DNA of 64,000 nucleotides from Escherichia coli (lineage in GTDB: Bacteria; Pseudomonadota; Gammaproteobacteria; Enterobacterales; Enterobacteriaceae): the NCBI RefSeq assembly GCF_003018115.1, contig NZ_CP027458.1; one strand, written 5' to 3'. The position numbers were made by a program. This document shows positions 25,301-31,300 of this stretch, one piece after another. Positions within the stretch are counted from its first letter, which is position 1, and each line of letters starts with the position of its first letter.

Positions 25301-28300
25301 GTTGATGAACTGGGGCACTGGGAGGAATGGCGTTCACGTGCTGAACAAATTCGTCGGCATGTTCTGGAAAATCTTGATGCCTATTTGTATCAATTGTCCG
25401 AAAAGGTTACTGCGAATGGCGGGCATGTATATTTTGCCCGTACCAGAGAGGATGCAACCAGTTACATACTGAAGGTGGCGAAAGAAAAAAACGCCAGGAA
25501 GGTTGTTAAATCCAAATCAATGGTGACTGAGGAAATTGGCATGAACGCCGTTCTTCAGAAAGCCGGGATACCCGTGATTGAAACAGACCTTGGGGAATAC
25601 ATTCTTCAGCTTGCACACGAACCGCCATCACATGTGGTTGTTCCGGCAATACATAAAGATCGCCATCAAATCCGCAGAGTGTTAAACGAACATCTGGGGT
25701 ATGAGGGACCAGAAACTCCTGAAGCAATGACATTGTTCATTCGAGAGAAAATCAGACAAGATTTTCTCAGTGCAGAAGTTGGTGTAACGGGATGTAACTT
25801 TGCTGTTGCAGAAACAGGGTCAGTCTGCCTTGTTACAAACGAAGGCAACGCACGTATGTGCACCACATTACCTAAAACACATATTGCTGTTATGGGGATG
25901 GAGCGTATTGCTCCGACATTCCAGGAGGTGGATGTTCTTATTACCATGCTTGCAAGGAGTGCTGTCGGGGCCAGACTGACGGGTTATAACACCTGGCTTA
26001 CAGGTCCAAGAGAAGAAGGACATGTTGACGGCCCGGAAGAGTTCCATCTCGTCATTGTTGACAATGGGCGTTCAGAGGTTCTCGGCTCAGAATTCAGCGA
26101 TGTATTGCGCTGTATTCGCTGCGGTGCCTGTATTAATACCTGTCCCGCTTATCGCCAGATTGGTGGACATGGCTATGGCTCAATCTACCCGGGCCCAATC
26201 GGAGCAGTTATTTCCCCGTTGCTTGGTGGCTATGAAGACTTTAAGGACTTACCTTATGCCTGTTCATTGTGCACTGCCTGCAATGGGGTATGTCCGGTAA
26301 AAATACCTCTGGCACAACTAATACAAACACATCGGCAGGTTATGGCAGAGACCAAAATAACACCATCAACAGAACGCCGTATAACAGGAATATTCAATTA
26401 CGTAAACAGTCATCCGGCATTGTGGAAAGTTGGCATGATTGCTGGCGCGAAAACAGCCAGTCTGTTCATCAGGAAAGGAAAAACGCCGATTAGTGTTGGA
26501 GCGATAAAAGAATGGACTGAAGCCAGAGACCTGCCATCACCTGATGGAGAAAGCTTCCGTAGTTGGTTCAAGCGACATAAGAAGGAGGGGTAATTTTATG
26601 GAAAACAGAGAGGAATTTCTCGTTGCGATCGCCAGAAAGCTTGGCAGACCAGTAAGACATATTCCCGAAGCAATGCCGGAGCCTGTAAATACGCTGGCTA
26701 CAACACGTTTAACTGAGTTGACATCAGACCAACGCTGTGAGGCGTTTATTAAATTTGCCTCGGAAGTGATGCTTGCCGAGTGTGTTCTGGTGTCGCCTGA
26801 GAACGCACCATCAAAAGCCTTAGACATCTGTTGGAAGTTCGGTTCCGGGCCAGTCATTATCAGCAACGATCAACGACTGGTCGATACAGGGATTACGCCA
26901 TTGCTACAAAAAGAAATGGGCGCTGCTCTGTGGGATCCGGAGAAGGGCGATGAAAATATCCATATTGCTGAAAAGGCAAAAACTGGTGTTGTTTTCGCTG
27001 AGTATGGGCTGACAGAATCAGGAGGCATTGTCTTATTCTCCGCACCAGAACGTGGGCGCTCAGTAAGCCTTTTGCCTGAAGCATCATTATTTGTTTTACG
27101 TAAAAGCACCATTCTTCCCAGAGTGGCTCAGCTTGCGAAGAAACTTCATGATATGGCTCAAAAAGGACAACGAATGCCTTCCTGTATCAATATAATTGGA
27201 GGACCAAGTTCAACTGCCGATATAGAGTTGATTAAAGTTGTCGGTGTTCATGGCCCTGTATATGCAGCCTATCTAATCATTGATGACTGCAAATAACAAT
27301 TATCCTCATGCCTGAGCCAATATATATAGTTCCGGCTCAGGCATCATCATTTTCATCTGTTATTTTCTCTATCAGCCCCAAATTTTCCTGTGATGTCGCA
27401 TCGGTTGAAAGTCCAACAAGCGCATTAGACATTAAAGCGTAAGCATCAACGGATGCGCCATATTGACAAAAAACGTGGCGGCCGACAATGAAAAGTAAGC
27501 GCTCCGTCTGTGACGTTTTGTGATGGTTGTCCTATCTGGCTACAATCGCGTCCATCGATATTAAAGTGCGCCCAGATCCTGGACAACTTATGCTGCCTGA
27601 CTCAATCGATATTGTACTGGGCTAAGACCGCCAAGTTTTTCCTTTATCCTCAATTAATTATAATTGTTTATGTAATCGATGATGTCTCGCTTTAAGCCCT
27701 CCACATTTTTATATTCATTGAGGTAATAACATTCTGATTTCAATGTTCCCAAAAAGCTCTCTATAACTGCATTATCAAGACAATTTCCCCGGCAAGACAT
27801 ACTCTGGACTATGCCGCTATCCTTTAACCATCGTTGCCACCGGGACATCTGATATTGCCAACCTTGATCGCTGTGCAGTATGGGGTGTTCATCTTTCGAC
27901 AGCTGTTTCAGCTCATCCGTAAACATAGTCGGCACCATTGAAGGTTTAGAACGAGTAGCGAGGTTATAGGAAATTATTTCTCCATTATAAAGATCCATGA
28001 TTGGCGATAAATACAGCTTCTTGCCATTAACTTTAAATTCAGTGACATCTGTAACCCACTTCTCGTTGGGGCATTTTGCATCAAAAACTGATAATCCCGG
28101 AAACGTACTTAAGGGCAGAGGGGGACCGCCTTCTGCCCTTTAATAAACAGGATATTAAGATTACTCGCCCAGGACTGCCAGTATCAAAAATGCACCTGCA
28201 GTAAGCATGGCAAGTTTTTCCCATACAATGGGACTGTCATCCCTCTTTTGTTTTCTTTTTCTCATATAAATGATGGTGTTTACTCAGACGCGAGAGTATT

Positions 28301-31300
28301 TCGTCTGTGTCTGTATGTCTGATTATTTTACTCATTTGATTACGCATCAGAATGCGCTTAGCACAGAAGTTGATTTTAGCCGTTGCCAGGTTTTTATTAA
28401 TAGTCAGCGTGGCGGCATGATATGCATGCCGCCACAATATTAACGCCCGGGCATAATCATGATGTACTGTCGACTCTTCCGCGGCTCTTGCCAGCTGAGA
28501 CCAGGACATTCGGTGCAGATCACCTTGTATAAGGTCCGGGGATGTCATAGCGGACTCCGGTTGTGCATGTCTTGTTTATTCCCCGGCGGGGACGCAGACG
28601 CCACGGAGAGCAAATTCCCCCACGTTTTCTTTTTTCAGCGCGGTGAAGGCATCCCGACAGGCTTTTTCAGTACGAAACGCCTGACTGTGAACAGCCAGTG
28701 TGGGTTGCCGGGCATCGCCGGAGGAGACATTAAAGGGGGATGAGAGCCAGAAAATCAGGATCCACATAGAACAGCCTTATGATTGTGTGCGTTTGTATTT
28801 TTCCAGGATGCCGATAGCCTGCAGGGGCGCTTCGTGGATTTCACGGATACATTCTGCGTCATGGATATTTTCTCTGTACCGGGTTCGTTCCAGCAGTATG
28901 TGGTGCATGTGGAGCATTCTGGCCAGTGCGGCGCTGAGTTCATTAATATGGTGTTCCCGGAAAACGGGACCGTCATGCATACGGCACAGGGGGATCACTT
29001 CCACATCGTCACAATGTGCCCGCAGCCACTCTTTTGTGACGGCTGCATCATCGGTGTAAAACCATGTGCCGGGTGTACCGTTAGCCAGAAACCGGATTTT
29101 CCATGCTTCAGGGGACGGAGGCGTCTGTCTGCCATCATTCATACGGGTTATCTCATTCTATGGGCTGAATGCTGCTCAGAATCAGCCTGCTGAGACTGTC
29201 AGGGCTGCCGCAGCGGCGACCGGTCGTTTTGCTGTAGCATTCCCGGTGCGTGTGGCACCAGGCAGTGGGTGTTTCATGAAGACGAACGCGCCGCGCTTGT
29301 TCTTTGTGGATAAGGAGTCCGGTGTGAGTTTTGATGTTTTTCATGTGCTTTCCGTTTCTTTCCCGGTGACAGCTGTGCCACACATGACGGGGGAATGTAA
29401 CCTTCGCTATCTTACTGAAAATATGCCATTTGCAGGAACCGGCGGTCAATCCTGTATGCAGGATTTGTATCACAGTTCCGGATGAGAGGAAGACGTATGT
29501 GGCCGTAAAAAAGCCGGCATTACTGCCAGCTTTAGTCATCGCAGTTAAGTAAACCAGTCGGCTGACATCCCGGAAATGTCTCTCAGACATATCCGGGCGG
29601 CAGGCACTGAGTGTAAAGGGCCCGCAGGCCCTTTTGAATACGGAGTATCAGAACGAGTAACGGAAGTTAGCGTTGACAGCATTATCAACGTTGTAATTAC
29701 CAAAGGCGGATTTCTCAAACTCCAGTCCAAAGCGGACGTTATCCCTGATTTCTGCATTCAGGCCAACGGACATCAGCATACGGCTGTCCTTTTCACCTTT
29801 GATGCGTTTTTCACCAGATGCATCCCGCAATACGGTTTCGCCATTAGCCAGCAGGTCGAACTGGTAGCCCAGACCGGCACGGGCTGTCACTTTCCAGTCC
29901 TTACCAGAGAAGGATTTACCCACATCCACACCAGTTCGGCCAATCAGCGGATTGTAGTCCTTGTCCTTCATGGACAGATGCATTCCCTGGTCCTTCCATG
30001 CAAACTGTTTACCGGATACAGAACCGTAAACCAGCTCAGCCTGTGGCTCAATCCAGGCATCCTCAGTGACATGATAGCGGTAGCCCGCTTCTGCACCGGC
30101 ATACCATGAATGCGTGCTGTAATCACGGGTTCCGAGTCCGGCAAAGGTTGCTGTGTACTCATTATCATGGTGAACATACTTGCCAATCAGGTCGATATAG
30201 GCACCGGAATCAAACATGGCGGAAGCATACAGGCCAGCCCCCACAGACTTCGTTTTACCGCTGAAAACATCTGCGGAGGCACTGCTGTCAGTGTGTGTGA
30301 CAGTGAAACCGGTAAACAAATCCAGTCCGTCCAGCTTATGTTTTTTGTCGACCCCGACCTGAACGTGCGTGTAGTTGTCACTGAAACCACCACTGGCAGA
30401 GCCGGTACCGCTCATGATGCGTGCCCATGCACCGGCTTCGCCGTTGATGTCACGCAGGTCACCCATACGTTTGTTCAGGTTGTTGACCTCGTTCAGAAAC
30501 GCTTTATAGTCAACAGAGAACAGGGCGGCGGCATTCCGGGTTGCTTCCTTGTTTGCTACCGTGTTATAGCCTGTCAGTGACCATGTTATTTTGTCATCGG
30601 TTTCCCGGGTTGTAATGACCGGCGTGACATTACTGAAACCTATCGCCTGTTCACTTCCTTTAAAGACATCTTTACTGCTGTTCCCCGGTGCACTCACCAG
30701 TTCAATATCCAGTTTTTCTCCGGAGGGTTTGTTCAGAAAATCAACCAACAGAATATTGTCCTTACCTGACAGCTTTTTGTTTACTACCAGCTTATCCGAA
30801 TTGTTCAGGTCCGTACGCATCGCATAGGCGCTGTTGCTGGTTGCCAGCTCATCGACCATCAGCGTATGGAATTTCTTATTGTTTGCGCTGTCAGTGAAAT
30901 AGACCATACTGTTTGTACTTTTCAGTGTTTTCAGCGCAGAATCTCCGGTTAGTTGCCACCAGGTGTTGTTCATAGTGGCAGATGCTGACGGGGCATGAAT
31001 TGCACCGCGGTATGCCGTATTAAAACCACTCAGTAATCCGACCGCGAGTCCCCGGGATGCCTTCTCAGACAATATGCCCTCTTTACCTGATTCAGTTCCG
31101 AAGCTGATTGTGGCCTGTTTATCAGAAATAATATCACCAACAACAGATGCCTGGTCTCTGGCTTTCAGTACTGATGAATCAGACATCAGTTTAAATCCGC
31201 CATCAGCCATATTGATGGTCGGTAAAAAAGCAGCATCATCTGAATTCACTGGTGTACCGGTAAGCAGAAGGGAAGCGTCACCAATATCAATGCTTCCACT

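Follow-up and report, generated by a model that had tools for sequence, protein, structure and literature searches.

We analyzed a 64,000-nt stretch of Escherichia coli DNA (contig NZ_CP027458.1; hereafter the window) belonging to an F-type STEC (Shiga toxin-producing E. coli) plasmid with traI, repA(FII), saa and iha. On its minus strand, between the stop codon of a SPATE gene (29648-29650, the right limit) and a fragment of an IS3-family transposase gene, lies a cluster of four small genes, denoted C, B, A and, at the downstream end, the 103-aa gene. This four-gene block is conserved and under selection and derives from I-complex plasmids; physically, it is joined to the SPATE gene's 3' half. 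We consider it probable that it constitutes a self-contained accessory operon of I-complex origin that travels as a passenger of the SPATE 3' half, and that its last gene encodes a protein resembling the ANR family of anti-regulators. That the operon is autonomous and a passenger is inferred with good support.

The first-pass annotation of this region had described three minus-strand open reading frames (ORFs) of 145, 121 and 103 aa, bounded by the SPATE gene and the IS3 fragment. The ORF listing contains all three (29153-29590, 28777-29142 and 28237-28548, respectively), and both borders are as described. The 145-aa ORF had been regarded as dubious, which is correct in that its frame as a whole is not conserved, but a real gene, C, sits in the identical frame. 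In the copy L003 (99.4% identity overall) a 1-bp insertion breaks the 5' two-thirds of the ORF, as do deletions of 4, 1 and 9 bp in L004, a chromosomal copy; the same segment also holds a canonical terminator and a promoter-like site (see below). With its frame disrupted in both copies, the 145-aa ORF was rejected as a gene. Only its last 63 in-frame codons (29153-29344, MKNIKTHTG...) are conserved as one: in an alignment of four copies, comprising the window, L002 (espP context), L003 (epeA-like context) and L004 (chromosomal espI context), the last 192 nt of the frame are 97-99.5% identical throughout and encode the 63-aa C protein. On near-identical plasmids the PGAP annotation calls the 103-, 63- and 121-aa genes and never the 145-aa ORF; within the latter it sometimes calls a short plus-strand ORF, a 69-aa piece of a 139-aa ORF at 29066-29485. 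This 139-aa ORF, which had been put forward as a plus-strand alternative, found no support, as the 1-bp insertion in L003 breaks it and the substitution bias fits the minus frame; the overlapping plus-strand ORFs were rejected as genes because the third-position bias of the minus frames is the reverse of what they require. The apparent gap between the 121- and 103-aa ORFs is a 228-nt stretch filled by an overlooked ORF of 63 aa (28576-28767), gene A. The true order on the minus strand is thus C (63 aa), B (121 aa), A (63 aa) and the 103-aa gene, with intergenic spacings of 10, 9 and 27 nt; the cluster consists of four real minus-strand genes. The last of these has a GGAG motif 7-10 nt upstream of its ATG.

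The pattern of divergence between the window and the I-complex plasmid L005 provides the evidence that these genes are functional. L005 and the IncB/O plasmid pMS7163B conserve all four genes at the protein level and keep their order, the DNA being about 72% identical. In L005, C (7560-7751), B (7180-7548) and A (6961-7176) are 71, 67 and 84% identical to their window counterparts at the amino acid level, and the orthologue of the 103-aa gene, an 83-aa ORF (6713-6964, minus strand) that is left unannotated, is 54% identical over 72 aligned residues. Nei-Gojobori analysis of this pair yielded a dN/dS of 0.11 for C, whereas B came out at 0.15 and A at 0.07, with synonymous sites essentially at saturation (pS about 0.65); the 103-aa gene has a pN of 0.32 and a pS of 0.83, the latter saturated. 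By minus-frame codon position, the substitutions number 11/10/31 in C, where the third position corresponds to plus-frame position 1, and 27/20/64 and 7/4/32 in B and A. The third-position bias in the minus frames together with the dN/dS values therefore points to four selected genes rather than decayed fragments, and since dN/dS is 0.07-0.15 for C, B and A, the cluster is, as judged from these substitutions, under purifying selection and made up of functional genes. It had been proposed that database hits might expose the ORFs as fragments of a known decayed gene; purifying selection was found instead. Gene C is intact in L001-L004. The divergence of window positions 28237-29344 from L004 is mosaic, the identities being 81% for the ANR-like gene, 95% for A, 87% for B, 97% for C and 60% for the 3' flank.

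The origin of the cluster is revealed by its distribution among plasmids. A search for distant DNA matches located the A-B-C segment (28592-29344) in 368 plasmid records at 60-80% identity (about 72%), mostly conjugative Escherichia/Shigella plasmids of IncI1/B/O type. The ANR-like protein is present at <60% amino acid identity in 366 plasmid records, and 468 of the 483 plasmid records matching it are conjugative. In both pMS7163B and L005 the gene order is excA - TnsA-like - hok/pnd - orf80 - C - B - A - ANR-like - (convergent) wHTH - nuc - small ORF - dqlB - trbABC, where wHTH denotes a winged helix-turn-helix gene; orthologues, order, orientation and the transfer-region neighbourhood all agree in these two plasmids. 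Genes 530, 560, 570 and 580 of pMS7163B (CP026855; PMC10286972), together with an unannotated C, represent the module there, genes 560, 570 and 580 being by their coordinates the orthologues of B, A and the ANR-like gene; order and orientation are kept, and the protein identities of 54-84% were measured on L005, which has the same module type. The I-complex version differs from that of the window in having an extra first gene of 80 aa, in its shorter ANR-like gene of 83 aa, which runs into both the stop codon of A and the convergent wHTH gene's 3' end, and in having no SPATE gene upstream. The 83-aa gene (L005 6713-6964, minus strand; pMS7163B 53479-53730) is unannotated in the PLSDB/RefSeq records examined, overlapping the stop of A by 4 nt and the wHTH 3' end by about 50 nt; Lian et al. 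annotated it as gene 580. In R64, the IncI1 prototype, the module is absent between hok and excA, and an assignment to the IncI1 backbone was accordingly narrowed to the IncB/O/K/Z-type group of the I-complex. On gene content, order and neighbourhood, the operon belongs to the backbone of IncB/O/K/Z-type conjugative plasmids.

TraDIS (transposon-directed insertion site sequencing) of pMS7163B bears on the role of the homologues in their plasmid host. Lian et al. (2023; PMC10286972) place them among "other genes" and ascribe no phenotype to them. Genes 560, 570 and 580 tolerate insertions at a normal density (Log2MPM 12.6-13.2; PMC10286972 S1 Table A), and their log2 fold changes (log2FC) after conjugation are +2.08, +1.29 and +1.62 (PMC10286972), a positive range shared by resistance genes and other cargo, with tra, trb and nik near -5 (PMC10286972). 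Because insertions are tolerated and the log2FC values lie in the range of neutral cargo, neither maintenance of the plasmid nor surface conjugation requires the module homologues under laboratory conditions. The notion that the module represses conjugation, which the positive log2FC values might suggest, was rejected, as neutral cargo and resistance genes have the same baseline.

The linkage of the module to SPATE genes is close and confined to one lineage. The window SPATE gene (29648-33739, minus strand) encodes 1363 aa starting with MNKIYSLKYS, and PGAP names its relatives EspP or EspI. Compared with the SPATE protein of L003 (8450-12541), it is 78% identical overall and about 98% identical over residues 640-1363; residues 1-640 are far more divergent (roughly 55-60% by eye). 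Such a mosaic implies a putative recombination breakpoint near codon 640, and the contrast between the divergent N-terminal part and the C-terminal part of about 98% identity therefore indicates that the passenger domain was swapped while the 3' half and the module stayed together. In a census of 20,395 complete E. coli replicons, 224 records (187 genomes) contain at least 80% of the module; when the module is extended by 750 bp of SPATE 3' sequence, 186 records (157 genomes) reach this coverage. In STEC, copies immediately follow espP, an epeA-like autotransporter gene and espI on the 3' side. Plasmids of the pO113 type have two copies, one at espP and one at a second autotransporter gene, and the chromosomal copy L004 (87% identity) follows an espI remnant beside subAB. 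In plasmids of the pO157 type only window positions 29394-29620 are retained, and for SPATE genes of other lineages (76% beta-domain identity) the match ends at the stop codon.

The pO113-type I-complex transfer region in L003 shows how the two elements may have come together. Its order is wHTH - nuc - SPATE - C - B - A - ANR-like - dqlB - trbABC, and the positions of epeA and trbC in pO113 fit this layout (PMC2681110). The ORFs flanking epeA in pO113 (UniProt Q7WUB7, Q7WUB8; PMC2681110) are the window proteins, and the arrangement trbA - dqlB - 103 aa - 63 aa - 121 aa - autotransporter - nuc matches L003; these ORFs were never characterized, and their database names lack backing by hidden Markov models (HMMs). 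BLAST comparison of L003 and L005 revealed collinear flanks (80-97%) between which the [ANR-A-B-C] and [nuc-wHTH] blocks are exchanged, with the SPATE gene between them; this exchange suggests an origin by tandem duplication or from a cointegrate. Of the I-complex-derived DNA, the window retains no more than the segment that begins at about 28085 and ends shortly upstream of where the SPATE gene starts. That espP, epeA-like genes and espI are all followed by these ORFs is explained by the recombining unit having been the SPATE 3' half plus the I-complex fragment. Taken together, the SPATE-free I-complex copies, the census counts, the pO157 remnant and the unmatched SPATE genes of other lineages lead us to conclude that the module is a fragment of the I-complex backbone hitch-hiking with one SPATE lineage, and neither a general SPATE accessory nor a mobilizer.

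Predicted transcription signals are consistent with independent expression of the operon. The 303-nt spacer between the SPATE gene and C, folded as RNA over 29345-29650 on the minus strand, has a predicted minimum free energy of folding of -108 kcal/mol (z = -3.9 relative to shuffles). Starting 13 nt after the SPATE stop, a first GC hairpin (29615-29635, minus strand; AAAGGGCC-UGCG-GGCCCUUU), invariant in the four aligned copies, is likely the SPATE terminator on the basis of its position and fold. It is followed by a canonical intrinsic terminator identified by RNA folding (29507-29533, minus strand; AAAGCUGGCA-GUAA-UGCCGGCUUUUUU). A consensus scan returned a sigma-70 promoter-like site (29420-29449, minus strand; TTGACC, 18 nt, TG-CATATT; TGCATATT) about 75 nt upstream of C and downstream of both terminators. 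About 100 nt downstream of the last gene, a 9-bp GC-rich hairpin (28111-28140, no strand assigned; AAGGGCAGA-12 nt-TCTGCCCTT) is conserved in L002 and L003; its tail is not T-rich and the terminator/promoter scan did not call it, and its location makes it the probable endpoint of the operon transcript, shared in intact relatives with the transcript of the convergent dqlB gene. Rfam returned nothing at E<=1 for positions 27500-30000. Co-transcription with the SPATE gene would entail a terminator-free spacer and a general linkage to SPATE genes; two hairpins occupy the spacer, and neither other SPATE lineages nor pO157 espP have the module. Because two terminator hairpins follow the SPATE stop, a promoter-like site comes next and the genes lie 9-27 nt apart, transcription of the operon is most likely autonomous. 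The suggestion that the cluster might be a small independent module has thus held up well, its genes and their order recurring free of SPATE in about 370 IncB/O/K/Z-type plasmids and its predicted signals comprising a promoter-like site of its own and two hairpins that separate it from SPATE. The companion suggestion, that it was part of the unit that mobilized the SPATE gene, survives in a passive sense only: the module is linked to the SPATE 3' half and moves with it, but has no resemblance to a transposase, integrase or relaxase.

Two findings weigh against this picture of a self-contained operon with a traceable history. Promoter-like matches are no commoner here than in shuffled sequences, so that the site upstream of C is a candidate only, and the order of events that placed SPATE beside the module is read from two plasmid layouts only. 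To these may be added an internal stop in gene B of the chromosomal copy L004, which demonstrates that the operon can decay.

The products of C, B and A resemble small accessory proteins of temperate phages. C (29153-29344, minus strand; isoelectric point (pI) 9.9) is predicted to be all-beta and matches four uncharacterized PHROGs (7520, 5148, 1226 and 4183), the first three as phrog_7520, 5148 and 1226 with E values of 3.5e-19, 1.5e-17 and 1e-16. By tblastn, C homologues are found in 104 phage records amid early-left or nin-type accessory genes, and the AlphaFold2 model of C (pLDDT 90.9) has structural matches in BFVD with TM scores of up to 0.87. A (28576-28767, minus strand; PGAP WP_000264906.1) has a hydrophobic N-terminal stretch (MWILIFWLSSPF) and two conserved cysteines and matches phrog_3766 (E 4.9e-12). 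Over their whole lengths, C and A are by these profile matches members of uncharacterized phage small-protein families; none of the PHROGs concerned (7520, 5148, 1226 and 4183 for C, 3766 for A) has a known function. In the early-left (exo-xis/ea) and nin regions, C is 38-55% identical to ORFs of 60-70 aa from Stx2a phages, mEp460, P1-like phages and phages of Klebsiella, Yersinia, Morganella and Stenotrophomonas, A shares 43% identity with an ORF that Klebsiella phages carry between EaD and Eaa, and the B C-terminal domain is fused to Ead/Ea22-type N-termini in other proteins. Unlike in the plasmids, the C-B-A order was not found in phage genes, and the cysteines of C are not conserved in its phage homologues. 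In Klebsiella phage 2b LV-2017 (L007 2998-3168, plus strand), an unannotated 56-aa homologue of A lies between EaD and Eaa with overlapping start/stop codons. The 67-aa C-like gene of lambdoid, Klebsiella and P1-like phages is always followed by an ORF of 78-79 aa with an 8-nt start/end overlap (L011 2501-2936; L012 3001-3436; L013 1501-1933; L016 1501-1933); the two resemble a conserved pair whose second member is, by eye, unlike B or orf80.

B (28777-29142, minus strand) combines a beta-beta-alpha-beta N-terminal region with a C-terminal helical hairpin of the motif AL.RML.MH..L.E.T.Y....D.EC.RE.HEAP.QA. Its family is narrow, with 38 representatives at E<=1e-3 among 1.8 billion proteins. In distant relatives the similarity is confined to the C-terminal 50 aa, and they bear neither a Pfam label nor a functional PHROG label; this C-terminal domain is common to diverse small phage-like proteins with other N-termini. 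The AlphaFold2 model of B is mediocre (pLDDT 68, pTM 0.35); Foldseek found no match with E < 1 for it in the PDB, tblastn with B no match in phage genomes, and a PDB sequence search only chance matches (E > 0.2). For all ORFs, including the plus-strand alternatives, Pfam returned just the IS3 fragment and a meaningless ARM match (0.044). PADLOC gave zero matches for the four proteins, and none of them has a relevant match among toxin/antitoxin Pfam families. By analogy with the phage relatives, our best guess is that C, B and A may be small proteins that bind host factors. The first-pass statement that no family is recognizable in this cluster is therefore nearly accurate, the exceptions being the sub-threshold ANR match of the 103-aa product and the matches of C and A to uncharacterized PHROGs.

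Four other explanations of the cluster were weighed. It could be specific to SPATE, its products assisting the expression, folding, secretion or regulation of the neighbouring autotransporter, which would account for the linkage. Of the near-identical full-length copies in complete E. coli genomes, about 83% lie directly against a SPATE 3' end, the block stands beside three different SPATE alleles, the N-terminus of A is signal-peptide-like and ANR-type proteins are virulence regulators. We nevertheless regard this explanation as quite improbable: the operon occurs in about 370 I-complex plasmids devoid of SPATE, other SPATE genes share nothing with it past the stop codon, two terminator hairpins separate it from SPATE, and pO157-type plasmids retain no more than 29394-29620. 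EspP was characterized from pO157 strains and is thus made without the module. A role of the cluster in having mobilized the SPATE gene is barely credible. Although insertion sequence (IS) fragments bound the cluster and it moves with the SPATE 3' half, none of the four products, at 63-121 aa, contains a domain of a transposase, integrase, recombinase, relaxase or nuclease, conjugation does not require the homologues, and mobile SPATE units such as that of pO157 lack the module; the IS3 and IS110 elements on its flanks, together with homologous recombination in the conserved beta-domain, account for the mobility without these genes.

That the operon is an anti-defence, exclusion or toxin-antitoxin-type system aiding establishment of a plasmid or phage in a new host is improbable, even though C, A and the B C-terminal domain recur in early/nin regions of temperate phages, where such functions are common, and in plasmids the module has type I toxin loci (hok/pnd, dqlB) as neighbours. 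Speaking against it are the lack of a PADLOC family match and of any toxin-like or nuclease-like domain, the neutrality of the TraDIS insertions, and the distance of the I-complex module from the leading region, which, to judge from the positions of nikAB and ardA, would make it enter the recipient late. A view of the ORFs as decayed remnants or chance ORFs without function can draw on the spurious nature of the 145-aa and plus-strand ORFs, the internal stop in B of L004 and the cost-free insertions in the pMS7163B homologues; it is very unlikely in light of the low dN/dS over near-saturated synonymous divergence, the conserved order with overlapping starts and stops of neighbouring genes in the I-complex version, and the existence of C and A homologues as intact small genes in many phages. 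An autonomous accessory operon of I-complex origin carried along with the SPATE 3' half is the explanation we prefer.

The last gene of this operon (28237-28548, minus strand) encodes a protein of 103 aa (12.0 kDa, pI 9.9), in which residues 18-66 form an ANR-like core and the rest is extension, including a basic C-terminal extension of 35 aa. Residues 18-66 align with positions 4-52 of the 54-position NCBIfam model NF033650 (ANR_neg_reg) with an E value of 1.6e-6 and 27.9 bits, a bit score given here for the window protein alone. All five divergent family members compared, including the 83-aa I-complex form, match the same model (best E 9.9e-7). The protein also matches phrog_2227 (E 5.5e-6). 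Its alignment by hhalign with Aar, taken from pAA of enteroaggregative E. coli (EAEC) 042, is weak but sensible (E 0.0056). The ANR signature, distributed over three conserved alpha-helices, consists of A10, E14, A22, W26, A29, W43 and R47 (PMC4983702); in the hhalign alignment A23, A35, W39, A42 and R65 of the window protein match signature positions. Like the ANR proteins Aar of EAEC, Cnr of enterotoxigenic E. coli and Rnr of enteropathogenic E. coli (EPEC) and Citrobacter rodentium, the 103-aa product is small, basic, putatively helical and encoded on a virulence plasmid, and its alignment keeps the A, A, W, A and R of the signature, the E being present in relatives.

Several observations weigh against placing the protein in the ANR family. 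Its 27.9 bits do not reach the curated cutoff of NF033650 (32 bits), and hhalign against Aar alone gave a probability of 6.5%. The essential W45 of Aar aligns with F61, and E18 of Aar with T27; at the latter position the relatives of 107 and 83 aa have E. The basic C-terminal tail takes the protein, with its 12.0 kDa, beyond the size range of described ANRs, which are below 10 kDa (4.4-9.5 kDa; PMC10148876); the I-complex orthologue has 9.4 kDa. An ANR is expected to occur alongside an AraC/XylS-family regulator that activates it, and to block the DNA binding of its targets. ANRs bind the linkers of AraC regulators and also H-NS and Ler (PMC4983702, PMC5570504, PMC10148876). Over 50 kb, the annotation of a near-identical plasmid contains no AraC/XylS gene, and the regulator next to the module in I-complex plasmids is a winged-helix protein (PF14090) and not an AraC protein. 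No AraC partner was found nearby in either setting. The 103-aa gene further differs from known ANR genes, which are solitary, in being the last of a four-gene operon, from described ANRs of 4.4-9.5 kDa in its mass of 12 kDa with the 35-aa extension, and in that its family is found on antibiotic-resistance I-complex plasmids as well. Weighing both sides, we regard it as possible, but no better than tentative, that the last gene encodes a divergent ANR-type anti-regulator that would act by binding a regulator.

The names under which this protein is filed are inconsistent: "flagellar biosynthesis protein FlgM" (PGAP), "Neurotensin receptor R8" (UniProt Q7WUB7) and "hypothetical protein". A PDB sequence search with it gave only chance matches (E > 0.2), and no FlgM family was found in Pfam or NCBIfam at E<=1. 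An identity as FlgM (anti-sigma-28) was rejected, since it has no HMM support and the name occurs in source annotations only; "FlgM" and "Neurotensin receptor R8" are unfounded, neither being backed by an HMM. Genes designated anr (VirulenceFinder-type) have been reported on IncF ColV plasmids, on a contig shared with the SPATE gene tsh (PMC11357031). In the incomplete annotation of the 100-150 kb stretch of pAPEC-O2-ColV, anr and tsh are both absent, and this lead was dropped.

The left border of the cluster, outside the operon, is the IS3-family transposase fragment (27654-28085, minus strand), which matches Pfam rve and NCBIfam transpos_IS3 (E 5.9e-38 over 27654-27998, profile positions 239-352 of 369) and is called an "incomplete" IS3 transposase by PGAP in L001 and L002. 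Homology to L003 begins at about 28085, and the I-complex-derived piece of the window ends on the right at an IS110-family element. In L003 the DinQ-like type I toxin gene dqlB (6797-6892) is convergent to the operon; in the window (about 28085-28140) the IS3 fragment replaces dqlB apart from its final bases and the hairpin shared with the operon. Immediately to the left of this fragment, the virulence plasmid carries a complete L-lactate permease gene and a lutABC-type lactate-utilization operon (22841-27296, plus strand), an arrangement repeated in the espP plasmids L001, L002 and L018. The GC content is about 0.50 in the SPATE 3' half and the small-gene operon, and 0.30-0.39 in windows spanning 33000-34200, that is, the SPATE 5' end and the region upstream.

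We propose the following course of events. A SPATE gene would have come to lie directly upstream of the operon in an I-complex-like ancestor of the pO113 transfer region. The conserved SPATE 3' half and the operon may then have been copied together by homologous and IS-mediated recombination, the copies landing by espP on F-type STEC plasmids, by epeA-like genes and by chromosomal espI. If the 103-aa protein is of ANR type, it would bind a transcription regulator and not DNA, as Aar and Rnr do. Its likeliest target would be H-NS or an H-NS-like silencer, or else a chromosomal activator of AraC/XylS type; H-NS-like silencers are the more plausible because an AraC/XylS partner is missing nearby and ANRs are known to bind H-NS and Ler. 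The SPATE 5' region, with a GC content of 0.30-0.39, is DNA of the type silenced by H-NS, and binding of the silencer could retune horizontally acquired AT-rich genes, possibly including the AT-rich SPATE promoter. A bolder proposal, which we consider rather unlikely, is that the 103-aa gene and its 83-aa orthologue form an undescribed plasmid-borne ANR clade that would be expressed from the four-gene operon along with three small proteins of phage type, would bind H-NS-like silencers or AraC/XylS activators of the host and would tune the adjacent AT-rich SPATE promoter in STEC.

Collectively, these data correct the gene model for a stretch of DNA that recurs in about 190 complete E. coli genomes and in about 370 I-complex plasmids, in whose annotations two real 63-aa genes, C and A, are often overlooked or mis-framed. 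The region is ordinary hitch-hiking accessory cargo, plus one ANR-like lead of modest interest; should that lead prove false, ordinary accessory cargo is what would be left. The lead is testable with assays already published for Aar and Rnr. If it is true, STEC virulence plasmids and widely disseminated resistance plasmids would have in common a small anti-regulator similar in kind to those by which virulence regulons are damped in EAEC, EPEC and related pathogens, and if the wider clade exists, hundreds of IncB/O/K/Z resistance plasmids, together with the STEC plasmids, would carry a built-in modulator of xenogeneic silencing.

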